Shown here: piece after piece, positions 2 through 31,996 of the stretch
Layout: every line of letters starts with the position of its first letter
How positions within the stretch are numbered: position 1 is the first letter of the stretch
Source of the DNA: a virus
Taxonomy: Duplodnaviria; Caudoviricetes
Virus record (IMG/VR): IMGVR_UViG_3300025155_000130
Span: 1 to 32,011 of that record
DNA: 32,011 nt
Direction: 5' to 3' (one strand)
Made by a program: the position numbers and the translations under genes
Notes under the pieces: generated by a model
What the model was told of the DNA's origin: nothing
Database searches by the model: none
What the model saw: the letters and a program-made list of their open reading frames with translations, nothing else

Positions 2-763
2 GAATCATTTAATCTAAAAGATCCAACAATTACTATGTTAGGTGGTATTAATGAAGCTCATGCAGAAGCATTATTTGCTACAAAAGATTTACATGGTGGA
101 TTTATTGGTAGAAGTTTTATTATACATGAATCAAAAAGAAATGCTATTAATTCTCTAGTAAGTGAAACAGATTTAGAAATTGATACGCAAATAGATTATA
201 CAAAATACTCTGATTACCTACAAACTATTGCATTATTAAGGGGACCATTTAAGCCACTTACTAAACAAACTATATCAGGTAGATTCTTTGATGATTGGTA
301 TAATGATTTAGTTAAGAATATTGAAAAGAAAGAAATTAAAGATCCTACAGGTACCTTAAATCGCGCGTCAGAATCAGTTATTAAAATTTCTATGTTGTTA
401 TCATTAATTCGTGAACCAAACTTAGAAATAGGAATAAAGGATTTAGAAATAGCAATTAAGATGTATGAATCTTTAGTCGGTAATATGCGAAAGACTACTT
501 CTGCTCAAGGTGAAGCACGTTGGATGAGACAAAAAGCAGAAATAATGAATGAACTCCGAACGCGAGATAATCATATGATAAGTAGAATACAATTAAATAA
601 GAATTTTTGGACCTCAGCTAATAGTCAAGATTGGGATTTAATTATGGAATCTTTAAGAGATGGTGGATGGGTTACATTTGAAATGGTTGGGCCTAATTTG
701 ATGTATGTTATGCCTGAGGAAAGAGCAATTGAATTGAATGAGAGAATGAAAGGGAAGAATTAA
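2..763 (+). CDS. 5'-truncated DUF3987/YfjI-like protein (primase/helicase-associated replication protein), C-terminal part
   Basis: Frame is open from the window edge. DPTITMLGGIN...GGFIGRSFII resembles the DUF3987 core; C-terminus looks winged-helix-like. Confidence 0.55.
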   Translation, partial: ESFNLKDPTITMLGGINEAHAEALFATKDLHGGFIGRSFIIHESKRNAINSLVSETDLEIDTQIDYTKYSDYLQTIALLRGPFKPLTKQTISGRFFDDWYNDLVKNIEKKEIKDPTGTLNRASESVIKISMLLSLIREPNLEIGIKDLEIAIKMYESLVGNMRKTTSAQGEARWMRQKAEIMNELRTRDNHMISRIQLNKNFWTSANSQDWDLIMESLRDGGWVTFEMVGPNLMYVMPEERAIELNERMKGKN

Positions 764-765
764 TC

Positions 766-915
766 ATGGAAATCAATCTTGTAATTGACATGCTACTAAA
801 AATAAAAGAACAACATGGAAACATTCAAGTTTATTTTGATTGCCCAGAATGTAATAAATCATTTGTACCAAATAGAATTGTTCCTATAGCTAAAATGTCT
901 GAAATTAAAACTTAG
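766..915 (+). CDS. small hypothetical protein (49 aa, CPEC motif), not in ORF track
   Basis: Manual translation MEINLVIDMLLKIKEQHGNIQVYFDCPECNKSFVPNRIVPIAKMSEIKT*; fills the gap between the upstream CDS and the tRNA. Confidence 0.6.
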   Translation: MEINLVIDMLLKIKEQHGNIQVYFDCPECNKSFVPNRIVPIAKMSEIKT

Positions 916-923
916 AAATTAAT

Positions 924-1009
924 CCGGGGATGATGGAATAGCAGACATTACAGACTTAAAATCTGTTGGTAGAAATACCGTGTGGGTGCGAATCCCACTC
1001 CCCGGACCA
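924..1009 (+). tRNA. tRNA-Leu, anticodon UAA, encoded CCA end
   Basis: Acceptor stem CCGGGGA(924-930)/TCCCCGG(999-1005), discriminator A, CCA. Anticodon arm ACAGA-CT-TAA-AA-TCTGT. Long variable arm TGGT-AGAAAT-ACCG. T-arm GTGGG-TGCGAAT-CCCAC. Confidence 0.93.
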
Positions 1010-1018
1010 AATAATTTT

Positions 1019-1219
1019 ATGTATTACTATTGTTTAAAATGCAAAACTAGAGTTTCTGAAAAAGATATAATTATGGAACCTACCATGAATGGTGATTATA
1101 ATTATAAGCATATGCTTTATTATTTACAAAGTGGAAAGAAAGATTATGTTTTGCATCCAGCAAGGAAAGTTTTTGAAAAGGAAATAAAATGCCAATCGAA
1201 CTCTCAGAATTTCCAGTAA
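1019..1219 (+). CDS. small hypothetical protein, CxxC...H putative Zn-binding
   Basis: Track ORF 980..1219 re-started at ATG 1019 because the longer start lies inside the tRNA; begins MYYYCLKCK. Confidence 0.55.
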   Translation: MYYYCLKCKTRVSEKDIIMEPTMNGDYNYKHMLYYLQSGKKDYVLHPARKVFEKEIKCQSNSQNFQ

Positions 1220-1497
1220 AAGAAAAGAAACCAGATAGATATAATTCCCTATTTGATGGTAAAATATGGAAGGTTCATCCATCTGAATATGATTATGATG
1301 TTGAGGATATAAAAGCATTTATAGCCTCAATTAAAAATTCAGCAGCTAAACAAAAGATTTATTTGAAAACTTTTATAACTGCTGATGATCACGTAATACT
1401 TTCTAAGCAACCTGATGGATATATTCCTAGAAAAATTACTAGAAAGAAAAAGGAAAATGAATTGGTAATTGAACACATTGGAAAGGAAGATCTATAA
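1189..1497 (+). CDS. hypothetical protein (102 aa)
   Basis: AAGGA SD upstream; TAATG coupling to the next gene. Confidence 0.65.
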   Translation: MPIELSEFPVKEKKPDRYNSLFDGKIWKVHPSEYDYDVEDIKAFIASIKNSAAKQKIYLKTFITADDHVILSKQPDGYIPRKITRKKKENELVIEHIGKEDL

Positions 1498-3017
1498 TGC
1501 CTAAGACTTTATCAGGAATTTTTGCTGATGTGTGCTATGCTCCATTTCCCACAATTGTGATAATTGAAGATGACTACAAAACAGTCCATTATAAAAATCT
1601 TCTTACTGGAGATGTATTTCGCACTGTTTCTCTGCAATTTGATTCATTATTCTTGCGGACTGCCTCCAAAGTAACTGAGATTAGATGCGTAGCGCAGATA
1701 GCAATTAGTCAGCATGTAAATAAATTAGCAATTATTTATAATGATGGTCATATAGAAATTACTCAACACAATTGCTCAGGCCAAGAGGGATGTTATATTC
1801 AATGCTTAAATGATAAGTTTGAAATCTATTGCAAGATTGATAGTTGGAACTATATCATAATTTTAGAAGATGGAACATTTACTGATCCAATTCCTATTCC
1901 ATTTCCAGAAGGAACAGTTCAAGGAATAATTGATATTCTTCATGGTTGCCCCGGCTATGCAAATGGAACTATTTTTTGGGGTGAAGAAAGAACTAGAGAA
2001 GTAGGAGGATTGAAATTTGTATATCCAGTTTATAGAAATGGAGTTACTTTTGGTCAAGAGTATTCAAAGGTAGATAGATTAGTTGGTAATGATAATGTAA
2101 CTACACAAAACTTCCTCGCGCTTGATAATAAATTGGGTAAGTATCCTCATTTAGCAACCGATAGTTATCAATATTTATCCTGCTGGGCAGAATTAAATAA
2201 TGTTATTGGTTATGAATTCTATCCACCATTTCCTCCATATACACCTCCAATTGTAATTGATGATCCTGTTCCTACTGAACCTGAATCAGAAAAAGTAGAT
2301 ATTCCATACTTTGCAAAAGCAAATCATAACTTTGACTTAATGATTCCAGGTAGTCCATCTGATAAAAAGCGATTAACTTGGATAGGAGATTCTAATCCTA
2401 CTGAATCCAATGTAGTGGGACTATTCTTTACTTACTCACAAGAATCAATACCAGATGCAGTAGCTATTTGTAAAGCAATTAAGAAGCCATTATGCTTTTA
2501 TGTTGATGGTAATGATTTTGGTTCAAATCATGAATCTATTTGTAAAGATATTGAAACTGCTAATCAAATAGAAGTTTGGAGATCATGGAATTGCTATCCA
2601 AAGGATTCACAATACAATGAAAGTCCTCCTTATGATAGTTTATTAAGAATCCAAAATGATAACCTTTCTCGAACTACTGGTAAGGTAGCACCTTGGTTTG
2701 CATTTTATAGGCAGATTTATCAGGTGGTTCCTGAGCCAAAATTCACATTAAAACTATCTACTGTAGTTTCAGCTTTGGACCACTTATGGCAAATCTTTGC
2801 ACAGAATAATAGATGTGTAGGAATCAATGGATTTACCTATGATCGCGCGAATGGAAAAGATGGAGTTATTGCTTGGAAGGAATTACAAGAATGCGAAAGA
2901 TTAATGAGAGAAAATATTCCTCAAATTGTTATTGTTCCAATTCCTCCACCAGTAGTAATAACTAAGAAGAAATCATTTTGGGAAAAGTTGCTTGATTTGT
3001 TGAGAGGCAGGAAATAA
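1497..3017 (+). CDS. 506-aa multidomain hypothetical protein (beta-rich N-domain, Pro linker, alpha/beta C-domain, basic amphipathic tail)
   Basis: Long ORF with TAATG overlaps at both ends; Pro-rich linkers PPFPPYTPP and PIPPPVV; C-terminus KKKSFWEKLLDLLRGRK. Confidence 0.7.
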   Translation: MPKTLSGIFADVCYAPFPTIVIIEDDYKTVHYKNLLTGDVFRTVSLQFDSLFLRTASKVTEIRCVAQIAISQHVNKLAIIYNDGHIEITQHNCSGQEGCYIQCLNDKFEIYCKIDSWNYIIILEDGTFTDPIPIPFPEGTVQGIIDILHGCPGYANGTIFWGEERTREVGGLKFVYPVYRNGVTFGQEYSKVDRLVGNDNVTTQNFLALDNKLGKYPHLATDSYQYLSCWAELNNVIGYEFYPPFPPYTPPIVIDDPVPTEPESEKVDIPYFAKANHNFDLMIPGSPSDKKRLTWIGDSNPTESNVVGLFFTYSQESIPDAVAICKAIKKPLCFYVDGNDFGSNHESICKDIETANQIEVWRSWNCYPKDSQYNESPPYDSLLRIQNDNLSRTTGKVAPWFAFYRQIYQVVPEPKFTLKLSTVVSALDHLWQIFAQNNRCVGINGFTYDRANGKDGVIAWKELQECERLMRENIPQIVIVPIPPPVVITKKKSFWEKLLDLLRGRK

Positions 3018-3274
3018 TGTTACCAAAACAAGAAGCTCACTTACAATCTGTTAAAGATAGATTTACTAATCTAGTAGATTCCAAATATAGAAAAGGCCAA
3101 CAAGAACACGGAGGAGATTTAATAGATAAAAATATTGAAGACATTATTGATTTCTCTATAGAAGAAGCTATTGATATGGTAGTATATTTATTTACCATAA
3201 AAGAACAGTTAGAAAAAGCTAAATTAAAGAATCATATTAGTAACTTAGCAACTATTAGAGAGACTAAGATTTAA
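3017..3274 (+). CDS. MazG-like / all-alpha nucleotide pyrophosphohydrolase-fold protein
   Basis: KYRKGQQEHGGDL...IEEAIDMVVYL carries the EExxD motif typical of small phage MazG-like proteins. Confidence 0.5.
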   Translation: MLPKQEAHLQSVKDRFTNLVDSKYRKGQQEHGGDLIDKNIEDIIDFSIEEAIDMVVYLFTIKEQLEKAKLKNHISNLATIRETKI

Positions 3275-5577
3275 TAAATTTTCATCTCAGGTTGTTCTTT
3301 ACCAAATAATTTATGACCCTGACCTCTTTCATCATAAATTTGAGTACCCATACCAACAGAAGATGGAATTAATGCTGGTAATAAGGTAGGATCTTCTTGA
3401 ATTAAGTCAGATAAATCTTGTAAAATAATAGGGGTGAATAATTTCATAGTTCTATCAACAATATCAAAAGGCATATTCTTAGTAGCAAAAAATGGGTCAC
3501 TAACAAAACCTGGAGTTGGAGCTAACTTATTTCGTACAAATCTAATAATAGCTTCTCCACGCGTTTGTGATCCAAATTTCTCGCCATATTCACTTGTTTT
3601 ACCACTAGTAGATGATGTATAACCACCACCTAATGACTGTGGTCTAAGTCTACTCAATAAAACTAGATATTGCTGAAATCCAGCACCAGGATCTAATCTG
3701 GTATTACCAATTTTAACCTTACCAAAATCAGCACTATTAGAATCAGATGTAGCTTTACCACCAGCTAATTTCCCTAGCTGTTCCATAGTAAACCATGCAC
3801 TAGCCATAGAAATTATCGATTTTAAATATTGCTTACGAATAAATGCTGGCTTACTAATATAGTTTGCAGGATTCATCATTTGAACGCGCGAAGCAATAAA
3901 TCTAGGAGCAAATAATCCAGTATTTAATGCAACAGCATATTTTTCTAAACTACCTAAACTACCTCTACCAGATGCATTATTAATATATCCAGCAATATCT
4001 CTTGCAAAAGGAATATTAGTTCTTGGATTAAGCCTTTCAACTTGAGCTAATTCTACTGGAGTTTTAGCAATTAACTTTGTTGATTCATAGATTCTCTCGG
4101 TATCCTTAATTAAAGAATTAAAATTATCTGCCCTAAGTTTATTTGCAAATGCTGTATAAGCACGATTAGATGCTCGAATACCAGGAATCTTTTCAGCAAA
4201 AGTTGACATTATCTGTTCTTCGCGACTAGATAAGTCAGTTAAATCAGTTACTGCTAAACCAGCTTCTTCAGCAAAAGAAGGTCTAAATTCTCCATTTGGG
4301 GCTTTTCTTGGTTTAAAATTTGGATGTTCTACAATTGAATCAATAACTCCTCTATATGATTTCTCAGATCCATATGATCTTAACATATCATCCCAAGAAG
4401 TCCACCATCCTTTTGTATGTATTAATCCTAGTCCTTGTCTAAATGGAAAAGAAATATCATATGCAGCTTGAATAGCGCGCGGAAGATTTACTGATTCTTG
4501 AATTAAACTTCTTCTAATATCAATCTTTGGTAAATTTGTTTTAATATTAGCAATTGAATCTTTACCAAATACTGATTCAAGTAATTTAATTTCGCTATCT
4601 TGTGGTACTCTACCTTCAATAATCTTAACTAATCCTGATGTTGCTGATTCCTTTTGAAATCTCATTAATGTTGGAAATTCATTAATTGTATCAACTAATG
4701 AATCTACATCAATTTGGTCCAACTTTAGTGGTTCAGTACTAACTTTAGTATATTCACCTTTTAATTTACCAAGCCTCTGGTAATGACCGGCTAATCCTTT
4801 AGTAGTAACTGTTTCTGCTTCTCCTACGCGCTTAGCACGTTCAATAGAATAAATCTGTGCCTGAAGTTTATTTAATGGCTTGGCTTGTTGAGTTGCTTCA
4901 ACTAATCTATCAATTGGAGTTTTTTGATTAGGAACTTCTGGTATTTTTTCAATAGGAAGATTTTCTTGAATTGGTAAAGATTCAGGAATTACTTCTTGTT
5001 TATTCAAAGGCAAATCAAATTCAGTTTTTGGAATTTCTGCTACTGGTAATTTAGCTTTTGGCTTAATTCCCGCACCATATTTTAAACCTAATCCACCACC
5101 AATAGCCTCAGCACCACCTAATAATCTTTCTCCAATAGAGGAATCTGGTTTTAATAAATTATATCCACCTTCAGCTACTAATGGAGCAGAACCAACTTTA
5201 ACAGCAGTATTTAATCCTTTTGCCAAACCAGATAATCCCATTTTAGCAGCAGTACTAGCACCACCTGTTGCTAAAGTCATTCCAATATTTAATGGACTAG
5301 TTAATCCTGAAGATAAATCAGAACCAATACCACGAACTTTCTCTTGAAAATCTGGTAAGATATTTGATTTGGGAACAATAACATTTCCAATAGCGCGCAT
5401 GAATTCTGGTGAGATTAATCCCTTATTAAGATAATCCCATGCAGAACCAATAATTCCTTTTGATTCTTTTGGAGGAGTAATTTCTTTAGTTGGTTCTTCT
5501 AATCCAACAGGATTACCATTATCATCTAAATAAACTGGCTTTGATGGATTACCCTGTTCATCTAGATATTGCTGCAT
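3271..5577 (-). CDS. large internal virion / DNA ejection protein
   Basis: Last and largest gene of the late region. Likely start MQQYLDEQGNP at 5577 (TAATG overlap). N-terminal YLDxxGNP repeat, Gly/Ala-rich hydrophobic helices, helical body. Position matches P22 gp16 / T7 gp16. Confidence 0.65.
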   Translation of the reverse strand: MQQYLDEQGNPSKPVYLDDNGNPVGLEEPTKEITPPKESKGIIGSAWDYLNKGLISPEFMRAIGNVIVPKSNILPDFQEKVRGIGSDLSSGLTSPLNIGMTLATGGASTAAKMGLSGLAKGLNTAVKVGSAPLVAEGGYNLLKPDSSIGERLLGGAEAIGGGLGLKYGAGIKPKAKLPVAEIPKTEFDLPLNKQEVIPESLPIQENLPIEKIPEVPNQKTPIDRLVEATQQAKPLNKLQAQIYSIERAKRVGEAETVTTKGLAGHYQRLGKLKGEYTKVSTEPLKLDQIDVDSLVDTINEFPTLMRFQKESATSGLVKIIEGRVPQDSEIKLLESVFGKDSIANIKTNLPKIDIRRSLIQESVNLPRAIQAAYDISFPFRQGLGLIHTKGWWTSWDDMLRSYGSEKSYRGVIDSIVEHPNFKPRKAPNGEFRPSFAEEAGLAVTDLTDLSSREEQIMSTFAEKIPGIRASNRAYTAFANKLRADNFNSLIKDTERIYESTKLIAKTPVELAQVERLNPRTNIPFARDIAGYINNASGRGSLGSLEKYAVALNTGLFAPRFIASRVQMMNPANYISKPAFIRKQYLKSIISMASAWFTMEQLGKLAGGKATSDSNSADFGKVKIGNTRLDPGAGFQQYLVLLSRLRPQSLGGGYTSSTSGKTSEYGEKFGSQTRGEAIIRFVRNKLAPTPGFVSDPFFATKNMPFDIVDRTMKLFTPIILQDLSDLIQEDPTLLPALIPSSVGMGTQIYDERGQGHKLFGKEQPEMKIY

Positions 5578-6896
5578 TATTGAGCCACCCAACCTTTACC
5601 ATCCCAAACACCAATTTTACCATTTGGAAATGTTTTCTTATCTCCGACTTTATGAATATTAACATTTGATAAATTTGGATTAACTGTTACAGATTGATTT
5701 TGATTAGTTGGAGTAGTTGTTCTTGTAACCGTAGTAGCTGGAGGCTTAATTGATTGTAACAAATAGTTCCGAATTTCATCATAAGTTTTCTGATCTGGTC
5801 CTGTTGGTTTTCCACTCCACCAACTAGTTCCAGGTTTAACAATTTCAATATCACCAGTATTAGCATCAACAGTTACAAAATCAGCCCATTCAGGTTTATC
5901 AATCTTTAACTGCTTAACTCTATTTTCTAATGCTACTTTCTGTTGACTAGGTAACATACTTGTAGATGATGAACTACCTGATGGAGTAGCTTTTGTAGTT
6001 CTTGCTTGTTCTCCGCGCGCTATAATTTGCTTATCTTCAATTGCTCCGCGTTGATTGATTAAATCAGATTGAACATCTCCTGATGCTTCGATTCTTGTAA
6101 TAGCAGCATCTAGTTGCAGATTAATCTTATCTAAATCACTAAGCATACCAGATGCAATTCCAGTATCAATTTTCTTAGTTGGATCAATTGGATTAACAGC
6201 AAATACATTCCCACCGCGTTCAGTTACAAATTTCCATGTAGGATTATCTTGTTTGAATCTAAGAATCTCAGTTCTCTTTTGCTGATCTTCAAGTTTCCTG
6301 ATATTTATTAATTCTGTTTCTCTATTCCTTCTTTCTAATTCTTCTTGCCTTCTAATTGCCAATTCATTAGTTCTTGTATTCTGAGCAAACATTCTTTCTT
6401 GAGTATTAGCCAATCTTTCATTATCTGCTGCTTGTTGTGCAGGTGTAATTCTATCTTTCCAGGATTTCATTTTATCTTCATAACCTGGATACATTACACC
6501 ACCAAATGCTTGTTGCCCACCACCACTACCGAATGCATCAGCAAGAGTTCCAAGAGCAACAGCACTAATTTTACGACCTAATCCAGCTTTTGGCTTTTCA
6601 GGATATTCATTCATTAAAGCATTAAATCTTGCATTTGCTGAAGTTTCTGGTTGATACTCAAATTGATCCTCTGGCCTAAATTGTGGGGGCATTTCTGGTG
6701 CTTTAGATTCAGGATATGGTGCTAAACCATTAAAACTATTAATCAATTCTTCATTAGAAATTGGTTCTTGATCAATATTATATGGTCCACTTCTATTAGG
6801 ATCTAGGCCACCAAAATTCATATAGGAATCATCAGGTTGTGAATTATCAAACATATTCCTAATACGATTTCGATTAAAAAGAGAAGTAAAGTCCAT
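5577..6896 (-). CDS. internal virion / DNA ejection protein
   Basis: Low-complexity coiled-coil protein with an amphipathic segment (GLGRKISAVALGTLADAFG). C-terminal VGDKKTFPNGKIGVWDGKGW motif as often seen in podophage injection proteins. Confidence 0.6.
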   Translation of the reverse strand: MDFTSLFNRNRIRNMFDNSQPDDSYMNFGGLDPNRSGPYNIDQEPISNEELINSFNGLAPYPESKAPEMPPQFRPEDQFEYQPETSANARFNALMNEYPEKPKAGLGRKISAVALGTLADAFGSGGGQQAFGGVMYPGYEDKMKSWKDRITPAQQAADNERLANTQERMFAQNTRTNELAIRRQEELERRNRETELINIRKLEDQQKRTEILRFKQDNPTWKFVTERGGNVFAVNPIDPTKKIDTGIASGMLSDLDKINLQLDAAITRIEASGDVQSDLINQRGAIEDKQIIARGEQARTTKATPSGSSSSTSMLPSQQKVALENRVKQLKIDKPEWADFVTVDANTGDIEIVKPGTSWWSGKPTGPDQKTYDEIRNYLLQSIKPPATTVTRTTTPTNQNQSVTVNPNLSNVNIHKVGDKKTFPNGKIGVWDGKGWVAQ

Positions 6897-6898
6897 AA

Positions 6899-7816
6899 TT
6901 ACTTCACCTTTCCTTTAGCAGCAGCTAGAGTAACACCCATCACATCAGCTAAATGTAATGTTTTTCCATCTCCAACACCAAAGATTCTCTTAAAATCTTC
7001 AGCCATTGGTCCCATATGTTTTGTTTTGTTACCCTTATATTTCCAGTTATATAGATTTAATTTCTTTAATCCTGCTAAAGCTCTAGTTCTATCAAGGGGT
7101 TCAATATCTTCTTTTAATTCTTTACTAGATACTGCCATTCCAACATAAGGTGCAGCAGTTCCAGCTACTTTTAATGCTTTTTCCCACCAAGGTGTTCCTT
7201 TTTGATTTTTACTTTGCTCAATTCGTTGCTGATTACCACCTAGATATTGATCACCAAACATATCAGGCATTCCTGGAGTAGTTCCATAAAGATTAGCCAT
7301 ACCTCCTGCGCGATTAAAATCTATTCCAGAACTTGCATTTCCAGAATTTAATAATCCAGATAAGCCAGCCATCTTACCTTGCTGCATCCTTTCTTGAATC
7401 ATACCTTCAGCATTAACTGATGCATCTGATAAACCATAACCTAAATCTCTATTCATCTTAGATTGAGCAGCAGCAAAATTTGGACTAGCACCTCCTAATG
7501 ATCTGCTACGATTTAATTCTGATTGCGCTCTACCAAATACTGCTCTTGTTGGTGCTAATGCTCTAGCTCTTACTGCATCAGGATTAAATCCTCCAGTATC
7601 AGCCATTGACTGAAAACCACCAGCAGCACTATTAATATAACCTTGGCCTTGTTGACCAGCAGTTCTATACTGGTCCATAATATTACCATAATCTAGTTTA
7701 GCCCGGTCTACTGATTCATTATAATTCTTCTGTGTTTGATCAGTAAATTGATTAGTGCTAGTTTCAACTCTCTGTCTTTGAGCTTCTTTTGCACGACCAG
7801 CATCGCCTTTTGCCAT
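6899..7816 (-). CDS. ejection (pilot-like) protein with C-terminal peptidase S74 intramolecular chaperone domain
   Basis: G/A/Q/N-rich helical N-part. C-terminal SSKELKEDIEPL...LKKLNLYNWKYK...HMGPMAEDF..FGVG matches the S74 consensus SDxRLKxxI...GxxAQ. Confidence 0.75.
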   Translation of the reverse strand: MAKGDAGRAKEAQRQRVETSTNQFTDQTQKNYNESVDRAKLDYGNIMDQYRTAGQQGQGYINSAAGGFQSMADTGGFNPDAVRARALAPTRAVFGRAQSELNRSRSLGGASPNFAAAQSKMNRDLGYGLSDASVNAEGMIQERMQQGKMAGLSGLLNSGNASSGIDFNRAGGMANLYGTTPGMPDMFGDQYLGGNQQRIEQSKNQKGTPWWEKALKVAGTAAPYVGMAVSSKELKEDIEPLDRTRALAGLKKLNLYNWKYKGNKTKHMGPMAEDFKRIFGVGDGKTLHLADVMGVTLAAAKGKVK

Positions 7817-7818
7817 GA

Positions 7819-8199
7819 TTATAACTCCAAAACTAATGCATTACCTTTTGTTGATTTAAAACCATGCTTCTTTAATCTTCTTAACCAAGATTCATTTCCT
7901 TGCACAAAACAATGAAGTTGATCATAGCCTTCTACAGCAACCTGTAAACTTAATGCAGTTAATAATTTCTCTAATGCTTCATATCTATCTTGAAGATTAT
8001 AATTCATATTAGTAATTGCTACTGCTTCTACAATTAACTTATTTCCACCGAAAGTAATGATTTCCTTTTTACTATCCTCAACGATAAAAGTATTAAAAAA
8101 CTTACTAAAATCAGGAAACTCGAACTGGTCTTTAAAAAATTTATTATGAAGTTCCCTAATTTTTTCCAAATCATATTCTTTTGCAAGTCTGATATTCAT
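7819..8199 (-). CDS. GNAT-fold (acetyltransferase-like) protein
   Basis: MNIRLAKEYDLEKIRELH start and NESWLRRLKKHGFK end are GNAT hallmarks; syntenic with P22 gp14 / T7 gp13. Confidence 0.7.
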   Translation of the reverse strand: MNIRLAKEYDLEKIRELHNKFFKDQFEFPDFSKFFNTFIVEDSKKEIITFGGNKLIVEAVAITNMNYNLQDRYEALEKLLTALSLQVAVEGYDQLHCFVQGNESWLRRLKKHGFKSTKGNALVLEL

Positions 8200-8615: not shown

Positions 8616-8618
8616 GAA

Positions 8619-9026: not shown

Positions 9027-9028
9027 AA

Positions 9029-9313
9029 CTAAGCCGGATAATCAGTATACATTTCCTTAACAAAAACTATAATTGAGTTAATTCTCATTACCTCATCAAT
9101 TTCATCTGTTGAGCCTTTTAATTTACCATATTGACTTATAAAGTTACTCAAACGCGTTTTTTCTCGCGAATCAGTTAAACTCATAGCAATTGGAACAAGA
9201 GTTTGGGTAAGAATATTATTATAACCTTGAAACTCCAAATCAAGATTTCCTGCACCAACTACTCTGATACGAGTAATACCAAAATGAATAATATTGCTTG
9301 AGCCCTGACCCAT
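9029..9313 (-). CDS. 94-aa protein resembling the C-terminal beta-sandwich of tail nozzle (P22 gp10 / T7 gp12-like) proteins
   Basis: Own GGAG SD and TAATG-coupled start; HFGITRIRVVGAGNL...NFISQYGKLK...RINSIIVF pattern. Confidence 0.5.
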   Translation of the reverse strand: MGQGSSNIIHFGITRIRVVGAGNLDLEFQGYNNILTQTLVPIAMSLTDSREKTRLSNFISQYGKLKGSTDEIDEVMRINSIIVFVKEMYTDYPA

Positions 9314-21894: not shown

Positions 21895-21895
21895 A

Positions 21896-23862: not shown

Positions 23863-24296
23863 TAATGTTTACCATGTACTCTAATATATTGAATCATACA
23901 AATTAATATAAATGGATCTTCCTTAACTAATCCTAAGGTAACATTACAATTATGACAAAGTAAAGCTCTAATCTTCCCAGTTCTATGACAATGATCTACT
24001 GCTAATCTATTTCTAACTGAACATTCTTCTCTACAAATTTCGCATTTACCATTTTGTGCAGCTAACATTTTTGCATATTCAATAGGATCTAAATCAAATC
24101 TCCATTTTATATATTGATCACTTCGAGCTTTTGAAGTTCTAGAAGGTCGTTTAGTATCACGAATTCTATCACAAGGTATACAACAAGTTTGTAAATATCC
24201 ATTTTTAAAACGAGAATTATCTTTAGTTAATATAGTTCCACAATCTTTACATTTCTCCCCAAGTAATTTTCTTGAACCCATTTTACCACTAGCCAT
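23862..24296 (-). CDS. recombination endonuclease VII-type HNH nuclease
   Basis: QNGKCEIC...LAVDHCHRTGKIRALLCHNCNVTLG; N-terminal CxxC...CxxC. Confidence 0.9.
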   Translation of the reverse strand: MASGKMGSRKLLGEKCKDCGTILTKDNSRFKNGYLQTCCIPCDRIRDTKRPSRTSKARSDQYIKWRFDLDPIEYAKMLAAQNGKCEICREECSVRNRLAVDHCHRTGKIRALLCHNCNVTLGLVKEDPFILICMIQYIRVHGKH

Positions 24297-24298
24297 AA

Positions 24299-24580
24299 TT
24301 ACTTTCCATTACCAGTACCTTCAAGTTTATTTACTTGATCACGCACTACTGATGCATAATCATTATCTTTATCTGGATCAGGCAATGGATGAGATTTAAG
24401 ATATGAACCTGCTGCAATTAATGCACCAACCATAACAACTGATCCTAATTTAATCCATGACCCTTCACCAAAAGGATTAAAATCATTAGGATCAACAATA
24501 AGCACAGTAATACCATTACCTACTGCTGATACTGCTGATGCAAATAATCCATGTAACCAAACTCGATATTTATAATTCAT
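24299..24580 (-). CDS. putative holin (2 TM)
   Basis: Two hydrophobic helices, then YLKSHPLP and a charged C-terminus. Confidence 0.55.
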   Translation of the reverse strand: MNYKYRVWLHGLFASAVSAVGNGITVLIVDPNDFNPFGEGSWIKLGSVVMVGALIAAGSYLKSHPLPDPDKDNDYASVVRDQVNKLEGTGNGK

Positions 24581-24582
24581 TG

Positions 24583-24747
24583 TTAAATTCCTGACAAATC
24601 ACCTGATGCAATTTTCTTTTGTTTATCTAATTCAGCATCAATTTGAGTAATCATGTTTGTTAAAACTTCTGAGTCATCTTTATCACGATTACCTAAATAT
24701 TCAAATAATGCTTTCAACGCGATTAAAATTAAAGTTTGTTGATCCAT
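24583..24747 (-). CDS. small helical hypothetical protein
   Basis: Likely start MDQQTLILIALK at 24747 with AAGGA SD. Confidence 0.5.
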   Translation of the reverse strand: MDQQTLILIALKALFEYLGNRDKDDSEVLTNMITQIDAELDKQKKIASGDLSGI

Positions 24748-25165
24748 GAATTTCCTTTTGATAAGCCTTCCAATTTTCAATAATAGAAAAAATTAATTTT
24801 ACTTGAGCACTTAATTTAGCTTTGAATTCTGAGTTTGATAAAACTTCAATAAAATTATTTACTGTATTAAATGTTAAAATACTAAATCTATCAAATTCAG
24901 AATTTAAAGTAGAACTATTTGTTTGAATAAGAATAACAATTTGTTTATTTAATTCTAATGCAGGTACTAGATAAATCTTGGAAAATATTATTCTATCTTC
25001 TGAACTAATTTGCTTAGCAACAAATGCGGCATCAGCAATATCCCCAGCAGTTTGTAATGCTGTAAATAATACTTGAGTATAATTAATTGCTGTTCGCCTT
25101 GGTGTAGAGGCACAATTAATTATTACAAGTAATGTTAATGTAATGCTAATTCTTTTAAGAATCAT
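24701..25165 (-). CDS. putative lipoprotein (lysis accessory / spanin-like?)
   Basis: MILKR, hydrophobic stretch, IINC-AS lipobox-like signal. Confidence 0.5.
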   Translation of the reverse strand: MILKRISITLTLLVIINCASTPRRTAINYTQVLFTALQTAGDIADAAFVAKQISSEDRIIFSKIYLVPALELNKQIVILIQTNSSTLNSEFDRFSILTFNTVNNFIEVLSNSEFKAKLSAQVKLIFSIIENWKAYQKEIHGSTNFNFNRVESII

Positions 25166-25189
25166 TGTAATTTTCCAATAGATTCATAA

Positions 25190-25513
25190 CTAATACACAA
25201 TCAAAACCTGCAACTCATCATTCGTTGATCCAAGAACATAGAAGTCACCAAGAGAAATATAACCATTACCACCCAACTCAATAATTGTTGGAGCATATGG
25301 AATTGATGTAAGAGGAATTTCAATCCTATAACCAAAATCTGTTGATGTAAGTGTTCTTTGATTACCACCAACATATGCTACTGCTACATTTGCTGAATGA
25401 GCTTGAAGTGATAAAAAGCGTAAAACATTTCCAACTCCTGCACCACCTGCTAATGCTGTAGCAAGATTAATTGGTGTTCCAGTTGTAAGTGCTACCGTAA
25501 AGTGGTTAACCAT
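25190..25513 (-). CDS. small beta-sandwich structural protein
   Basis: Likely start MVNHFTVALT at 25513; LQAHSANVAVAYVGG pattern of phage fibre/decoration domains. Confidence 0.55.
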   Translation of the reverse strand: MVNHFTVALTTGTPINLATALAGGAGVGNVLRFLSLQAHSANVAVAYVGGNQRTLTSTDFGYRIEIPLTSIPYAPTIIELGGNGYISLGDFYVLGSTNDELQVLIVY

Positions 25514-25644
25514 GTTATAAATCCAATCATTGCTGAAACCCAATTCATTCTATAACCGCGTCTATATCTACTTGCAAGAGAAATTGTTCCTGATGGAGGT
25601 GGAGGAAGCCATCCTGACCAAAAGAATAAATACATTGCTAACAT
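25492..25644 (-). CDS. small hypothetical protein (50 aa), not in ORF track
   Basis: MLAMYLFFWSGWLPPPPSGTISLASRYRRGYRMNWVSAMIGFITWLTTLR*; ATG immediately follows the upstream stop. Confidence 0.5.
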   Translation of the reverse strand: MLAMYLFFWSGWLPPPPSGTISLASRYRRGYRMNWVSAMIGFITWLTTLR

Positions 25645-26124
25645 TTATAATCCAATACAATCTGGATAATTAATTAATCCATCAACTAATGTTGTAGCTG
25701 GTGAAGCATCAGTTCCAGTTCCAGTAGAAAATAGTTTCTCAATTCGCGTAGCACTTCTCTTACAATGAACATATACTGCTGCTCTAACTGCTAAATCTGC
25801 TGCTGTTCCTACCCAAACTGTATCAATTCCGGCGCGAATCCCCGGATTAGATGGATTTATTGAACCTTGTCCTGCATCAAACATCCATTCCCAAATGCGA
25901 GCTTTTCCAACTCCAAGATTATCTACTCTAGTCCAATCAAAATTATCAATCATTATTTCTTGCTGAGGAACAGAATTTCGCCAAATAATAAAATTTGGAG
26001 CTGCGAGAGAATTTAATAGATCAACTAATCCTGATAAATCTCCATCTGTATAAAGAACCAACAAATCAGCAGTTGCTAATATATGAGCTTTAAGAATAAT
26101 CTTTTGAGCAGATGTTAATATCAT
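25645..26124 (-). CDS. tail-fibre-associated protein (159 aa)
   Basis: LTSAQKIILKAHIL...WTRVDNL..GKARIW...KRSATRIEKLF..GTGT..SPAT; coupled to the LamG-like gene. Confidence 0.55.
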   Translation of the reverse strand: MILTSAQKIILKAHILATADLLVLYTDGDLSGLVDLLNSLAAPNFIIWRNSVPQQEIMIDNFDWTRVDNLGVGKARIWEWMFDAGQGSINPSNPGIRAGIDTVWVGTAADLAVRAAVYVHCKRSATRIEKLFSTGTGTDASPATTLVDGLINYPDCIGL

Positions 26125-26849
26125 TATGCTATAAATCTCTTGAGAGGTCGCGTGAAGTTAGTACGTTTATTAAAATTTGATAATAAATTATTTTTGCCTA
26201 TTGAAGCACCAGTAACAATACCATGATTTCCATTACCCGACCAATCAAGTTGTGTACTGGTACCATTTTGTCCAAGTTCCCAATAACCTCTTCTAGGAAG
26301 AGGAATATCTCTTGTCCATGCCGCACAAATTTGTGCTAACGTCATATTCTCATTAACAAACGAAATAGACAACAGTTCTCCATTGACATCCTCTTCGGAA
26401 CCAAGACCATTATTACCAAGTAACATAATCTCTGCTGACGTGTCATGATAGCCACTCCCATCAGTAGTCACGTTCAACGTCTGAAGTGTGGGTGGGGTGT
26501 TGAGAAGCCCTTTATATATTCGCACCAAATCATTAGCCGACCCACTAGGATTGAAGGTAAAGGCGAAAAAATTAATCACCCCGATTGACCACGGGTGGGC
26601 CGTGATCTGATACTTCAACGTCACGGTCCCGGTGATTTCAAACTCACATACCCCACTACTCGTTCGCCAAGTAATCCGCACTCTCGGTGTAAATGGTGAA
26701 CCAACATGCGCCTTACCAAAAAGACCACAGTTTCCAGCATCATTTATGGGCACAAACCATCCATATGCCGACCATGCGGCCGCGGCCATATTCCACCCCA
26801 TCGTACCCACATTAACATATTCAACATCAGAATCGAAGAGAAGTGACAT
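26124..26849 (-). CDS. LamG / concanavalin-A-like lectin domain protein (putative receptor binding)
   Basis: SLLFD...YVNVG, FFAFTF, RIY, LLGN, GYWEL...DWSGNGNHG motifs. Confidence 0.75.
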   Translation of the reverse strand: MSLLFDSDVEYVNVGTMGWNMAAAAWSAYGWFVPINDAGNCGLFGKAHVGSPFTPRVRITWRTSSGVCEFEITGTVTLKYQITAHPWSIGVINFFAFTFNPSGSANDLVRIYKGLLNTPPTLQTLNVTTDGSGYHDTSAEIMLLGNNGLGSEEDVNGELLSISFVNENMTLAQICAAWTRDIPLPRRGYWELGQNGTSTQLDWSGNGNHGIVTGASIGKNNLLSNFNKRTNFTRPLKRFIA

Positions 26850-26877
26850 TGTTAACCAGACTACTAGAAAGAATTCA

Positions 26878-28275
26878 CTATACTGCTACTCCATAAGCAA
26901 GAGGAGTAATCTTAACTATACAACTTGTACCACCATCATTATTCATATTCTGCGCGGTTGAATTCTTAATATAGAAATCAATACTAGTTGCGCCTTGCAA
27001 ATCAATCTTTATCTGTCGTCTTTGAAGTGCATCAGTTCCAGCAATTATCCATGAACCAAAATAATGTGCCCCACCATTAACAGTCGTTGCAGGCGCATCA
27101 GTTTCATCATCTGTTCCATCTATATTATTAAGAATACCATATAAATCTACTGTAGTTCCTGCTACTGGAGCTGCTGCCCAATCAGGAGCTTCTAACATTG
27201 CTAATGCTTCTCTTGCATATGGAACTGCTGCATCAGAAGTATTATCAAAACTTGCAGCAGGAGCACCTGAAAAATTACCCGCTGCAATATCTGTTGCTGT
27301 ATTAATTACTGTCTGAGCAGTTCCATAGAATGCTTTCTCAGGATAATTAGCTGCTGTAATTAATAAATAAACTAATCCTCTTAAGTATTGTTGTAATGTT
27401 CCATTTGCATCAGTAATTACTTTTGCTCCAGAAATAGCACCTAATACTGCTACTGCTGGATCATCTGATGCAAGTGTAGTTCTAGGAGTATTTGCTGCTA
27501 CTGCTCCCGCGCCTGCTGTAATAGCAACTTGACCAGCAATTAAATTAACTTTCGCGCGATCGGTTTCGTCCCAATCGTCAATAATTTGTAATGCTACTAC
27601 AGCAGGATCATCACTAGCTAATGTAGTGCGTGGTGTATTTGCAGCAACAGCACCAGCACCAGCAGTTATTGCTACTTGACCAGCAACAAGATTTACTGCT
27701 GCACGATTAGTTTCATCCCAATCATCTATTATTTCTACGGCAGCTTGAATTGCTTGTTCTGCTGTAATTTGTGTTGATTGGTTTGCTGATGTAGCAACCC
27801 CAGTTACTGCAACCGTTCCTGATACTGGAACTGCTGTAGCGCGTAGTTGTGTATCAGTTAATGCATCTGTTTGTTGTGATGCTGCTGTAGCTGCTCCAGT
27901 AGGTAATGGTAATGTTGCTGCACTAACTGGTACTGCTGTTGCTCTTAATTGAGCATCTGTTAATCCACCAGTTACAACAGTACCAGAAACTACAATAGGA
28001 TTAGTTGCTGTTCCCCCAGCAACAGGTCCACCAGCACCTGGTAATGCTAATCCTACTAATGATAAGTTTGCAGTTCCCGCGCCAGTATCATAATCAAGTA
28101 ATTGCTCAGTCTCTATGGGTACACGTAATCTACTACTAATACCAACTACATTTGCATCTGTAGATGGATCAGAAATTACAATTCCTTGCCTATGATAACC
28201 TAGAACTGTAGTAGTCCAGGTATCAATTAATTTACCTGTGCTATCCGGTGGAACTTGTACAAATGAATTAGCCAT
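26878..28275 (-). CDS. tail fibre protein with internal repeats
   Basis: Ala/Thr/Gly-rich; LTDxQLRATAVPVS twice; 49-aa tandem repeat; globular C-terminal beta domain. Confidence 0.75.
   Translation of the reverse strand: MANSFVQVPPDSTGKLIDTWTTTVLGYHRQGIVISDPSTDANVVGISSRLRVPIETEQLLDYDTGAGTANLSLVGLALPGAGGPVAGGTATNPIVVSGTVVTGGLTDAQLRATAVPVSAATLPLPTGAATAASQQTDALTDTQLRATAVPVSGTVAVTGVATSANQSTQITAEQAIQAAVEIIDDWDETNRAAVNLVAGQVAITAGAGAVAANTPRTTLASDDPAVVALQIIDDWDETDRAKVNLIAGQVAITAGAGAVAANTPRTTLASDDPAVAVLGAISGAKVITDANGTLQQYLRGLVYLLITAANYPEKAFYGTAQTVINTATDIAAGNFSGAPAASFDNTSDAAVPYAREALAMLEAPDWAAAPVAGTTVDLYGILNNIDGTDDETDAPATTVNGGAHYFGSWIIAGTDALQRRQIKIDLQGATSIDFYIKNSTAQNMNNDGGTSCIVKITPLAYGVAV
27440..27735 (-). 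repeat. 147-bp-period tandem duplication (49 aa x2) in the tail fibre
   Basis: IIDDWDETxRAxVNLxAGQVAITAGAGAVAANTPRTTLASDDPAV occurs twice; Trp codons at 27571 and 27718. Confidence 0.9.
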
Positions 28276-28579
28276 TTATTGCTTTGGCCTTACATTCACT
28301 ACAAATAAGTTTGCCAGTTAAGGCATTTCTAAAAGTATTCTCAGGTAAGAATTTTCCACAATCTTGACAAATTGTTTCAGTAAATACTTGTGATTGAGTT
28401 GAGTTGAAAGTACGTTTAATCCGAACTATATCAAGTGAATGAACTTGAATGAATTGCTCATGTCTTTGAATTATTTGGAATAATTGATCGCGAGATTTTT
28501 CATAGTTGTAGAGTTTCCATAAAATATAAATATTTGGAATAAGTAAAGCTAAAAATAAATAAATCATTTTACTTCTCAA
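28268..28579 (-). CDS. membrane-anchored protein with C-terminal Zn finger
   Basis: N-terminal TM segment; CQDCG...CSEC. Confidence 0.6.
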   Translation of the reverse strand: MRSKMIYLFLALLIPNIYILWKLYNYEKSRDQLFQIIQRHEQFIQVHSLDIVRIKRTFNSTQSQVFTETICQDCGKFLPENTFRNALTGKLICSECKAKAING

Positions 28580-29099
28580 TAACTATTGGTCCAATAATTA
28601 AGCTATTTGCTGGACATCTAACTGTAAGTCTTTGGTCACCATTTGCATAAGATGACATTGCAGTAATTGAACATTTAACTGTTGGTCTAGTTAATAAAAT
28701 TATAATTGAATTTAACTTATCAAGAATTTGAGTTAATTCAGTTTGGGAAATTATCGGATTTGCTACAGTATATTCAATAATATTTGAATAACCAATATTT
28801 CCTGCTGCATCTACTGCAATTGCTCTGACATTAATTATTCCAGTTAGTAATGGAATCCAATTAGTTTCATATGGTGGGATTGGATCGCGAAAGATTGGAT
28901 TACTATTCTGTTGGAACTCCACATAAGAAACTCCAACATCATCTGTAGCAGTTGCTTGAAGAATTATATTTGATCCAATAATAGTATTTCTATAAGTAGT
29001 AATACCTTGAACAAATGAAAATCTAGCGTATTCTTGTGAGGAATTAAGGGGAATAATAAATAGGATACTAATAATAATTGATAAAAGAATTCGTTTCAT
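28569..29099 (-). CDS. signal-peptide-bearing bacterial Ig-like (Big) domain protein
   Basis: MKRILLSIIISILFIIP signal; ATATDDVGVSYVEF...PPY...AIAVDAAGN motif. Confidence 0.75.
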   Translation of the reverse strand: MKRILLSIIISILFIIPLNSSQEYARFSFVQGITTYRNTIIGSNIILQATATDDVGVSYVEFQQNSNPIFRDPIPPYETNWIPLLTGIINVRAIAVDAAGNIGYSNIIEYTVANPIISQTELTQILDKLNSIIILLTRPTVKCSITAMSSYANGDQRLTVRCPANSLIIGPIVIEK

Positions 29100-29509
29100 T
29101 TTAGATTATACCTCATTCCTGATCCTGCTCCAGTTCTTTCAATTAGATTTTCACCTATTAATAAACTTATAGCATTTCTAAAATCATCTGGTCGCGCTGC
29201 ACATGAAAGTAATCGTAATCTATATGAACGATGAATTCCTTCTTTTATATGAAATAGAATCTTTTCTTTTACTAATAAAACTTCTCCATTTATTTTGTCA
29301 GGTTTTCTATAAACTTCTTTCTTAGAAGAATCATCTTTTAATAATCCTTCAACAAGATTTGGATAAAGTTTTAGAATCCCACGCGCGATGATTATTACAT
29401 CCTTAACTTTAGCATCATTCTCTAACAACCGAATTATTACAGATAATCCATGTTGGTATGAGATATGTTCAATTCTTAATTGTGCATATTCACGTTCCGA
29501 AACTTCCAT
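29096..29509 (-). CDS. hypothetical protein, possible C-terminal winged helix
   Basis: AISLLIGENLIERTGAGSGMRYNL resembles a wHTH wing. Confidence 0.5.
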   Translation of the reverse strand: MEVSEREYAQLRIEHISYQHGLSVIIRLLENDAKVKDVIIIARGILKLYPNLVEGLLKDDSSKKEVYRKPDKINGEVLLVKEKILFHIKEGIHRSYRLRLLSCAARPDDFRNAISLLIGENLIERTGAGSGMRYNLK

Positions 29510-29515
29510 TATCCA

Positions 29516-29731
29516 TTATGCAACAGTTAATGTATAAGTTGTACCAGAAACTGTTAAAGTAAGAGTTGTCTGAGTAGAAATATCAATGTAAGTAGTAACT
29601 CCTCCGGTTCGATTTAAGATGAGTAACTCCTTACCATTAACAAAGGTAAATGCCTCTACATCTGTAAATACTTGAGCTGTTAAATCTTTACCTGGACCAC
29701 TTGTTCCTGTAACTGTTACTGATGCTGCCAT
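29516..29731 (-). CDS. small Thr-rich beta protein
   Basis: Strong AGGAG SD; 71 aa. Confidence 0.65.
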   Translation of the reverse strand: MAASVTVTGTSGPGKDLTAQVFTDVEAFTFVNGKELLILNRTGGVTTYIDISTQTTLTLTVSGTTYTLTVA

Positions 29732-29746
29732 GTGAATTTCTCCTTT

Positions 29747-30259
29747 TTATCTTTCAATTTCTTGCACATCAATTACATCGTAGCTTTCTTCTTCGCGCAT
29801 TCTAGGTCTATATATTACAACAGAGTTCTTAATGTTAACTCCATCTTCAGTTCCAGTCATATTCTTTGCAACTTGACTCATATCTCTAGCAACTGAAGCT
29901 GCTGTTCTTACTCCTGCATCGAGTAATTTTTCTTTTGTAATGCAGTTCATCGCATCCATTAATTTATTGAATGCAACTCCTGAAATCTTTGATCTAACTT
30001 CATCATTAGCAGCTTCTAATTTCGCGTCGGGCTTATGATATGTAGCTGTTGAATGTGCACCATTTTTGTAGGCACTGATTGAAGATTCAGAAATTCCAAA
30101 TGTTTTAGATAATTCTTTTGCTGATGCACCTGCAATTGATTCCTGTGCAATTAACGCGCGCAGAGGTTCTGATACATTCTTAATTCCATTACCTCTACCG
30201 TGTTCAATTAATCTAGTTTCAATTAAGAATTCTTCTTCTGAAACAATTCCTAAAGGCAT
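29747..30259 (-). CDS. HTH protein, putative terminase small subunit
   Basis: Likely start MPLGIVSEE at 30259 (the longer start overlaps the promoter). HTH AKELSKTFGISESSISAYK followed by oligomerisation-type helices and a beta tail. First gene of the late region. Confidence 0.5.
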   Translation of the reverse strand: MPLGIVSEEEFLIETRLIEHGRGNGIKNVSEPLRALIAQESIAGASAKELSKTFGISESSISAYKNGAHSTATYHKPDAKLEAANDEVRSKISGVAFNKLMDAMNCITKEKLLDAGVRTAASVARDMSQVAKNMTGTEDGVNIKNSVVIYRPRMREEESYDVIDVQEIER

Positions 30260-30317
30260 AAAAATTACCAATACTTCAGCGGGCTCTGAACTCCTACACC
30301 CGTGGCGTTCAAGAGGC

Positions 30318-30346
30318 ATCTTATCATGTAATTCTTTCCAAGTCAA
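30318..30346 (-). promoter_or_regulatory. sigma70-type promoter for the late region
   Basis: Minus strand TTGACT-17 bp-TAAGAT with extended -10 TGn. Confidence 0.7.
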
Positions 30347-30829: not shown

Positions 30830-31129
30830 ATGCCACTACCAGGTGACAGACTCTATTACGTTTGGCAGAATTACAAGACTGGCGCGTTAGAGTGCTTGTC
30901 TGTTGTTGTCAAGCGTATTGGCGAAGTTTATACCACATTTGAGAATAACGATTCATATCGTGGTATGACTCGCTACCATTCAGGAGCGTTAGAAAATAGT
31001 CCCATCTCAGAGCGTAGCGCATGGGAAAGATTCTTACGCGAGCAATATAGCGAGCAAGAACGCCTGACCGCCAGACTCAACAGAACGCGACAAGCAATAG
31101 AAACTGCCGAGCAACACATAAACAACTAG
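30830..31129 (+). CDS. hypothetical early protein (99 aa)
   Basis: AGGA SD; SH3-like beta N-terminus and coiled-coil C-terminus. Confidence 0.65.
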   Translation: MPLPGDRLYYVWQNYKTGALECLSVVVKRIGEVYTTFENNDSYRGMTRYHSGALENSPISERSAWERFLREQYSEQERLTARLNRTRQAIETAEQHINN

Positions 31130-31210
31130 CTAGTTTTCCCACCAGCATCTTATTGACTCCACAATCATCAATTCACAGGCTTTGTTAGTGGCTCATTCGA
31201 GGAGCAAACA

Positions 31211-31384
31211 ATGACAAAGTATCAGATAAGAGTGATTGTAGAAGAAACTAATGGAGATATTCGTAACACAATTTTGGATATCTCTGTTTTTGATACAGAT
31301 TCTATCGCAGAATCTATCAATCAGGCCCAAAAACTCATCAAAAGAGCAGAGAGAAAGCCAAATGGGCCTAGGAGTAAGAAGTAA
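31211..31384 (+). CDS. hypothetical early protein (57 aa), not in ORF track
   Basis: GAGGAG SD; MTKYQIRVIVEETNGDIRNTILDISVFDTDSIAESINQAQKLIKRAERKPNGPRSKK*. Confidence 0.7.
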   Translation: MTKYQIRVIVEETNGDIRNTILDISVFDTDSIAESINQAQKLIKRAERKPNGPRSKK

Positions 31385-31551
31385 TGAAAATCCGTAAATG
31401 TAAGATTGATGTGGAAAGGGATAGTCTTTTGCCACCACAAGAACCCGAATACAGCATTAGAATCCTGCCAAAGAAAAGATATGGCGCGTGGATTCTTATG
31501 CTACAGTGGAATGAAACAATCATCGAAATAGCATCGGGCGAAGGTAACTAG
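31384..31551 (+). CDS. hypothetical early protein (55 aa), not in ORF track
   Basis: AGGAG SD and TAATG overlap; MKIRKCKIDVERDSLLPPQEPEYSIRILPKKRYGAWILMLQWNETIIEIASGEGN*. Confidence 0.6.
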   Translation: MKIRKCKIDVERDSLLPPQEPEYSIRILPKKRYGAWILMLQWNETIIEIASGEGN

Positions 31552-31605
31552 CTAGCAAACCGAGCCACTAATAAAACTTGTGACTTGAAAAAGAAAAGGA
31601 TAACT

Positions 31606-31812
31606 ATGACCGCAACGGTTTGGATTCTTGAAATTGACACAGCTACTTATGCATTCTTTGATAAAGAGAATGCAATTCATATGGCAGCACAAATGCAGGT
31701 TAGAGACTATAACCTGTATGAAGTGCAGCTATATGATGGGCAGGTAGAACCTGATAATTATGGACAAGCCATAATCTATGCAGGACTACAGTTCAAAAAG
31801 GATGGTAAATAA
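31606..31812 (+). CDS. hypothetical early protein (68 aa)
   Basis: AAGGA SD before ATG 31606. Confidence 0.6.
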   Translation: MTATVWILEIDTATYAFFDKENAIHMAAQMQVRDYNLYEVQLYDGQVEPDNYGQAIIYAGLQFKKDGK

Positions 31813-31813
31813 G

Positions 31814-31996
31814 ATGGAATGCCTAATCTGTGATGGAGTCTACAACATCAAGCGCGATTGCTGCCCATATTGTGGCGCGTTCAAAGTAGGGAATAAGCAC
31901 TATGATAAGCATAATGGAATGCGTGAGTTAGCACGAGTAATTCCACGAAAGATTGTGCAGTTCTCAGAACTAAGAATCAAGTCAGAACTGGCATAG
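31814..31996 (+). CDS. small Zn-ribbon protein
   Basis: CLICDG...CPYCG; start could alternatively be 31802. Confidence 0.6.
   Translation: MECLICDGVYNIKRDCCPYCGAFKVGNKHYDKHNGMRELARVIPRKIVQFSELRIKSELA

Follow-up and report, generated by a model that had tools for sequence, protein, structure and literature searches.

Phages are expected to shed short palindromes, and the phage considered here accumulates one of them, CGCG, while avoiding others. What does this word do, and what keeps it in an AT-rich genome? The question arises from a stretch of DNA of 32,011 nucleotides (positions 1 to 32,011 of the IMG/VR record IMGVR_UViG_3300025155_000130; Duplodnaviria, Caudoviricetes), referred to below as the window. 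An earlier note had described CGCG in this window as a hidden DNA-level signal and had explained it chiefly through DNA methylation. The same phage is represented by an estimated complete genome of 47,105 bp (G001; identity to the window 99.8-99.96%), which adds the early region. The analysis described here confirmed a strong CGCG excess that extends over the family. What is new is that the enriched word and the replication module of the phage are exchanged as one. A role of the word in priming of DNA synthesis is tentatively proposed.

CGCG excess and null models

The window has a GC content of 35.0% and holds 106 CGCG matches compared with a zero-order expectation of 29.4. Once merged, they make up 91 loci that lie on average 350 bp apart, in agreement with the count of about 90 made earlier by hand. 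The 15 occurrences of CGCGCG claimed at that time were all recovered at identical coordinates (zero-order expectation 0.9). The span given for the signal, 362..31870, is correct at its start and slightly short at its end, the last CGCG being at 31876-31879. By maximal-order Markov statistics CGCG is at the top of the 256 tetramers in the window (z 16.5; runner-up 9.3), and CpG as a whole is depleted (rho 0.555).

Codons of the 41 window genes were shuffled 300 times each, pooled and per gene. The genes contain 103 CGCG against 23.7 and 25.6 in the two forms of the null (z 20.7 and 17.2), which thus fails to reproduce the counts. For CGCGCG, 15 were observed in genes against 0.75-0.86, the shuffle maximum being 4. 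All three reading frames are used (41/24/38). Other GC tetramers served as control, and the excess proved specific to CGCG: in the window genes CCGG (21 observed, 19.9 shuffled) and GGCC (20 and 13.2) are near the null. The apparent excess of GCGC (78 observed, 30.5 shuffled) arises from overlap with CGCG, as 67 of the 80 window GCGC overlap a CGCG; in the full G001 genome, GCGC free of CGCG contact number 20 against 28 expected. Genic CGCG in the whole of G001 number 134 against 34 expected, and the excess of about 4-fold is present throughout. Even spacing, for which the earlier note had proposed a check, was not seen. The sites of the window are randomly spaced (coefficient of variation 0.87, p 0.13), and none of 13 genomes has evenly spaced CGCG (lowest p 0.065).

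A codon or amino-acid artefact as cause of the excess is ruled out by the shuffles and by the flank analyses described below, and a general excess of GC tetramers by the near-null values of the others. Alternation of the Z-DNA type was rejected, as ACGCGT is not favoured (3 of 140 G001 sites). A general trait of AT-rich phages was rejected as well, no CGCG excess being present in seven control phage stretches. Observed and expected counts in 40-kb stretches were 38/40 for phiKZ, 7/14 for PA5oct, 68/62 for Atu_ph07 and 0/17 for phiYS40, all four of which have GC-rich hosts. Three distant polymerase relatives also have no CGCG excess. The phiYS40 stretch (L356), with zero CGCG, is the reverse of the studied phage. 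No report of CGCG over-representation in phages was found in a literature search that left subscription papers mostly uncovered and supplements unopened.

Anatomy and conservation of the CGCG word

Synonymous sites in G001 favour all four positions of the word, with odds ratios of 56 for the outer C, 13 for the inner G and 4-10 for the inner C. At Xaa-Ala sites of 28 other enriched loci, CGCG is 4-5x above independence without a G/C flank, 9-10x with G before or C after, and 19x with both. The flank preference weakens past two bases on each side, and the motif is graded and near-symmetric. No shift at the amino-acid level was observed apart from a slight Arg-Ala excess (1.12 vs 0.97).

The conservation of the sites was compared between relatives. 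In enriched relatives at 77-84% identity, inner CGCG positions are kept at 0.55-0.81, compared with a retention of other CpG at 0.31-0.39; the two values were 0.37 and 0.22 in a single enriched pair at 73% identity. In unenriched pairs, inner CGCG positions have no retention gain over other CpG. Retention of whole sites was 0.61 in six enriched pairs and 0.20 in seven unenriched pairs, levels which are not strictly comparable because the enriched set has two pairs above 95% identity. Of the 45 Xaa-Ala sites lost between G004 and G005, 30 have changes at both ends. Relatives either share a site in full or have lost it as a unit, and no added conservation is seen at synonymous positions farther than 10 bp from a shared CGCG. 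The preference for all four positions at synonymous sites, together with the whole-site retention, supports a DNA-level signal that is read by a protein. To this extent the earlier claim of a hidden signal stands, whereas its methylase-centred readings are unsupported.

A second word in relatives

Collection with the capsid protein yielded 135 loci of at least 7 kb, 133 of them with the capsid gene, and 81 after removal of near-duplicates. Over these 81 loci CGCG ranges from 0.33 to 5.4x expectation, with z >3 in 38. The fold excess rises with falling GC at third codon positions (GC3; rho -0.55) and is largest in the AT-richest relatives; the density per kb is independent of GC3 (rho 0.05). 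On a quick capsid tree of the 81 rows the CGCG trait has a patchy distribution, with 29 rows scored as strong and 17 changes.

In relatives that lack the CGCG excess a second word is often present, AGCCG/GCCGC, for which the best heptamer is AGCCGCT (127 vs 21 in seven genomes). Carriers are G006, G009, G028, G035, G036, G037 and G041, and the variants AGCCG, TGCCG and GCCGG differ by lineage. Classified by word, 38 of the 81 loci are of CGCG type only, 21 of the second type only, 5 of both and 17 of neither, several of the last being short or GC-rich. The two types are distinct in the late genes: CGCG and AGCCG are observed 92 and 9 times in G001 (22 and 11 expected), and 11 and 85 times in G041 (16 and 23 expected). 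The second word is 1.4-2.2x stronger on the early-gene strand in 7/7 genomes, in early and late regions alike. No single gene is confined to the enriched genomes beyond clade markers.

Other words of the family were also recorded. CGCG does not behave as an avoided restriction site, being enriched and not depleted; G001 genes contain no CTGCAG, CAGCTG, AAGCTT or CCATGG, which is the usual sign of restriction avoidance. GATC and/or GTAC are near-absent (to 0.00-0.06 of expectation) in G002, G008, G011, G034-G036 and many other loci, independently of the CGCG excess, and this loss likely records host restriction systems. A/T runs are depleted family-wide (AAAAA 161 vs 333 in G001), and ATTAG/CTAAT, AATCC and CTAC are mildly over-represented in many members.

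Word type follows the replication genes

The early region of G001 encodes an SNF2 helicase, a PD-(D/E)xK exonuclease, a Sak4-like ATPase, a cold-shock domain, a UDG-PolA fusion and a DUF3987 protein. The last carries the PHROG label primase. Its predicted structure (pLDDT 84, pTM 0.74) folds like MCM, with Foldseek matches to MCM subunits (E 1e-8), and the protein is predicted to be an MCM-like AAA+ helicase with no primase domain visible. By search and fold, the replication set consists of the UDG-PolA polymerase, the MCM-like helicase, the exonuclease and the Sak4-like ATPase.

Word profiles were taken from late genes only and compared with the divergence of individual proteins by Mantel tests (22-29 genomes). 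On the replication side, rho was 0.70 for the DUF3987 helicase, 0.69 for the exonuclease, 0.66 for the polymerase, 0.58 for Sak4 and 0.55 for a 136-aa putative single-stranded DNA-binding protein. On the virion side it was 0.12 for the portal, -0.04 for the terminase and 0.08 for the capsid, where shallow distances limit the comparison. In the FastTree tree of the helicase, 19 CGCG-type rows form one clade (Shimodaira-Hasegawa support 98) and 5 AGCCG-type rows another (100). The FastTree trees of polymerase and exonuclease likewise separate the CGCG genomes, as a single clade, from a clade of five second-type genomes. The capsid tree mixes the types, AGCCG-type G041 grouping with CGCG-type G001 and G033 (98). 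As the word type swaps with the replication genes, the word is likely to be a signal read during DNA copying.

A candidate priming word

The reading that we prefer, to which a probability of about 0.4 is assigned, is that the replisome uses CGCG as a priming word made of G and C only, which selection has preserved while the genome drifted towards AT. At about 3 copies per kb in silent positions, CGCG would act as the start signal for primer synthesis. Since AT drift would make chance priming sites too rare, selection would have retained them. No recognisable phage primase is present, and the word would therefore have to be read either by a DnaG of the host whose site is GC-only or by a cryptic phage primase. 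We infer that a priming site fits best because the word is tied to the replisome, is polarised where asymmetric, has graded flanks and random spacing, and is in greatest excess where AT drift would remove it.

Sites of known primases offer a comparison. The site of T7 gp4 primase is 5'-(G/T)2GTC-3' (PMC12839067, PMC2532735), that of Mycobacterium tuberculosis DnaG is 5'-GC(G/C)-3' (cited second-hand in PMC12839067), and those of Aquifex DnaG are CCC/GCC/CGC (PMC2532735). The lagging region of T7 is given in the former paper as having 177 primase sites (PMC12839067), a density similar to that of CGCG here. When the test used for CGCG was applied to T7, the top-strand primase pentamers were enriched 1.1-2.0x. 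As a candidate priming word, CGCG resembles primase sites in its shortness and graded flanks, its presence genome-wide at a few per kb and its tie to the replication machinery; it differs in its excess of at least 4-fold, its 4-base palindromic core and the lack of a primase gene. Another possible parallel is CCPol-MP with the Cch2 helicase of SCCmec, described in PMC7581432 as a family A polymerase that primes at preferred sites with a small ssDNA-binding partner. The phages studied here also carry PolA and small OB-type genes; their PolA differs in being full length with UDG and exonuclease regions. A further step is possible, and we take it with considerable doubt: the phages, an abundant and uncultured podovirus family, may have a new priming system, with an MCM-like helicase, no recognisable primase and a specificity switched between clades (CGCG vs AGCCGC), which would rewrite silent positions genome-wide, including those of swapped-in virion genes.

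Several observations weigh against a priming word. Known primase sites are trinucleotides with flanks, and trimers alone are unfavoured here, CGC before A, C or T being at background. No TOPRIM (Toprim_2, PF13155) or Prim-Pol (PF09250) primase was found in any of 24 genomes. Inside the CGCG clade, GCGCG/CGCGC is unpolarised (9/18 genomes), the CGCG density varies from 0.8 to 5.0 per kb, and the flank profile tracks none of the replication genes (rho <=0.18). The correlation with the replication genes is driven largely by one deep split, with few independent clade contrasts, and the replication module may vary together with the lineage of the host. G002 is enriched 3.1x outside the main clade, its replication genes being sister to those of unenriched G007; G041 is a fragment without its replication genes, and its placement in the second clade is by word type and one early gene. 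The excess in T7 is far weaker than here, and 2/4 of its reverse-complement pentamers are also enriched (1.5x). As about 6-37 active priming sites suffice for T7 according to PMC12839067, selection for 140 sites in G001 is not obvious.

Alternative explanations

It appears unlikely that CGCG in the phage DNA is marked by a methyltransferase of the host, with a methyl-directed repair ratchet or host-mimicry building the sites. In three reports CGCG is described as a commonly methylated motif of prokaryotes from the environment and of some phage genomes (PMC8919816, PMC9516812, bioRxiv 10.64898/2026.06.24.734251), and several Acidobacteriota stretches have a weak GCGCG excess (1.3-1.7). The G-meC model, as presented by Elhai 2015 (PMC4390886), places G before a methylated C and has GCsGC among the alternative words, which matches both the G-flank preference and AGCCGCT of the second clade. 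The HIP words of that paper resemble CGCG as a GC-rich palindromic word in silent positions of all frames, with G-flank preference and the GCsGC alternative. Unlike HIP, the word studied here belongs to a phage and not a chromosome, has a 4-base graded core without a cognate methyltransferase in the genome, and is denser than 1 per kb. The sister clade's word is moreover strand-polarised, which a double-strand methyl site would not predict. A methylase search proposed in the earlier note gave no methyltransferase of the C5 or N4/N6 type, either in the complete genome or in the CGCG-enriched relatives searched: PF01555 was present in 1/46 records, unenriched G010 only, and PF00145 in 0/20 and 0/24 genomes of overlapping sets. 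Five signature-positive Acidobacteriota, candidate hosts at most, share no common methyltransferase ortholog. CGCG without a G/C flank is still 4-5x enriched. Dcm/Vsr drives the excess of CCWGG, also an enriched C-containing palindrome, and near-matches derived from T:G are expected to be lost in that system. Here transition near-matches are not lost; in 13 genomes they are enriched relative to transversion controls (odds ratios 1.27-1.47), and each of the four positions is favoured. When G001 is taken by itself, TGCG is low (0.13, p 0.003) and CGCA is not (1.14). With no methylase, no drain of near-matches, random spacing at densities up to 5 per kb and unprotected neighbours beyond 10 bp, the methylase-coupled biased repair suggested earlier is unsupported. 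The packaging role raised in the same note is unlikely, given that neither terminase nor portal nor capsid is tracked by the word; furthermore, CGCG would be abundant in a GC-rich host and would then be ill suited as a self mark of the phage for packaging.

Also unlikely in our judgement is a Chi-like stop or loading signal for end resection, read by a host enzyme of the AddAB/RecBCD type or by the exonuclease-Sak4 set of the phage. Such a signal would accord with the rho values of exonuclease (0.69) and Sak4 (0.58). Both words are similar to known Chi words, namely AGCGG of B. subtilis and GCGCGTG of L. lactis, and Chi can build up in phages that lack resection inhibitors. Chi sites share with the words studied here that they are short, lineage-specific and over-represented. 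The strand polarity and graded variants of the second clade fit this explanation better than does the studied phage, in which the core is palindromic and unpolarised and no longer fixed consensus extends past one or two flanking bases. A functionless by-product of context-dependent errors or uracil editing on the part of the phage's UDG-PolA protein seems improbable. It would follow the polymerase tree (rho 0.66), could be strand-biased, and is compatible with the near absence of a shift at the amino-acid level. However, all four positions are needed jointly (odds ratios 4-56 in G001), two-thirds of the Xaa-Ala sites lost between G004 and G005 (30/45) are altered at both ends, and neighbour effects on error rates would not be expected to yield an all-or-none tetramer. 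Least probable of all is that a DNA-binding protein of the phage or host coats or organises the genome for protection or anti-silencing, with an early zinc-finger/coiled-coil protein and a small helix-turn-helix (HTH) protein upstream of the polymerase as candidates. The graded, near-symmetric motif would suit such a protein, and the zinc-finger subtypes split with the word, one occurring in 17 genomes, all >=1.36x, and another in 5, all <=0.95. These subtypes are, however, syntenic orthologs and clade markers; the zinc-finger protein has no fold match to a known DNA binder, and the HTH cluster is missing from the strongly enriched G004 and G005. By likeness only, the word is comparable to primase and Chi words in its apparent mode of action and to HIP in its form.

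Genes of the phage, habitat and host

The window corresponds to the virion module of a podovirus-like phage and includes a terminase, a capsid gene, a cell wall hydrolase and a tRNA-Leu(UAA); its features are collected in Table 1. A short open reading frame called at 980-1219 overlaps the tRNA, and its start may therefore be wrong. A 465-aa gene has an internal direct repeat of ~147 bp at 27442-27737 (73% identity). In the early region of G001, an 83-aa protein upstream of the polymerase (L035:6296-6547) clusters with a 426-aa G010 protein at the same position (L039), which bears an N6/N4 methyltransferase; the short protein may be a relic of a longer fusion. The conserved zinc-finger/coiled-coil early protein (L041:9377-10177) has a Cys4 zinc site, a long coiled coil and C-terminal helices, occurs as three divergent subtypes, and gave no family or fold match (model pTM 0.33). 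In G031 and G032 the polymerase is in two pieces (573 + 289 aa) with a small gene between.

Table 1. Positions of the sites and genes in the window
Feature	Position	Strand	Remarks
CGCG sites	362..31879	.	106 sites, 91 loci, ~3.3 per kb, 103 genic
CGCGCG (two overlapping sites), first eight	362, 2844, 3885, 4476, 6014, 9578, 10057, 12397	.	
CGCGCG, other seven	12686, 15294, 21971, 23625, 27553, 29382, 30155	.	overall span 362..30160
DUF3987 gene, 3' part	2..763	+	405 aa in G001; divergence best tracks word type
tRNA-Leu(UAA)	924..1009	+	TTA 53% of Leu codons in G001
Podovirus-like tail, adaptor, probable internal virion and cell wall hydrolase genes	3271..16662	-	CGCG excess as elsewhere
Major capsid protein	16620..17858	-	query for collecting relatives; divergence not tracking word type
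Probable portal, 766 aa	19432..21732	-	named by position and size, without family match
Terminase large subunit	22234..23862	-	divergence not tracking word type, rho -0.04
Weak HTH-type protein	29747..30346	-	early/late boundary; moderate tracking of word type, rho 0.48

Sequencing runs with the phage sequence are soil, sediment and groundwater metagenomes; these matches, 16 of 20 of which may come from the source of the window itself, serve as a guide to habitat only. No cultured members were found in capsid and portal searches. Five capsid matches in genome collections were rejected as host leads, since they belong to five unrelated taxa and look misbinned. TTA makes up 53% of the Leu codons in G001, which together with the tRNA-Leu(UAA) suggests a host with rare TTA; the tRNA is present in 17/30 relatives scanned, chiefly TTA-rich ones. 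Among 301 Acidobacteriota genomes, a sample centred on G021, from which nothing but the phylum label is drawn, the tRNA had no close match (best 76% over its length), and the capsid profile matched 2 genomes. In one of the two, G065 (contig C46, L291, ~21.9-33.0 kb), terminase, portal and capsid genes distantly related to the family (30-42%) lie among bacterial genes with host-like composition; they are possibly a domesticated prophage and serve at most as a lead. The tRNA and this relic hint at a GC-rich host. CGCG occurs at 4-31 per kb in genes of Acidobacteriota stretches, in a survey that covered 28/33 stretches. A count of WWCGCGWW over Acidobacteriota genomes mixes CGCG excess with GCGC avoidance and was left unused.

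Implications

The capsid protein has 3,100 relatives among 7,999 scored candidates. If priming or resection is what the word signals, the clade-specific words predict the specificity of a primase or of a host enzyme and would aid host assignment. If it is instead the footprint of host methylation, the family would offer a phage-scale test of how HIP-like words arise. Should a new, switched priming system prove true, the specificity of a replisome would be readable from genome composition alone.

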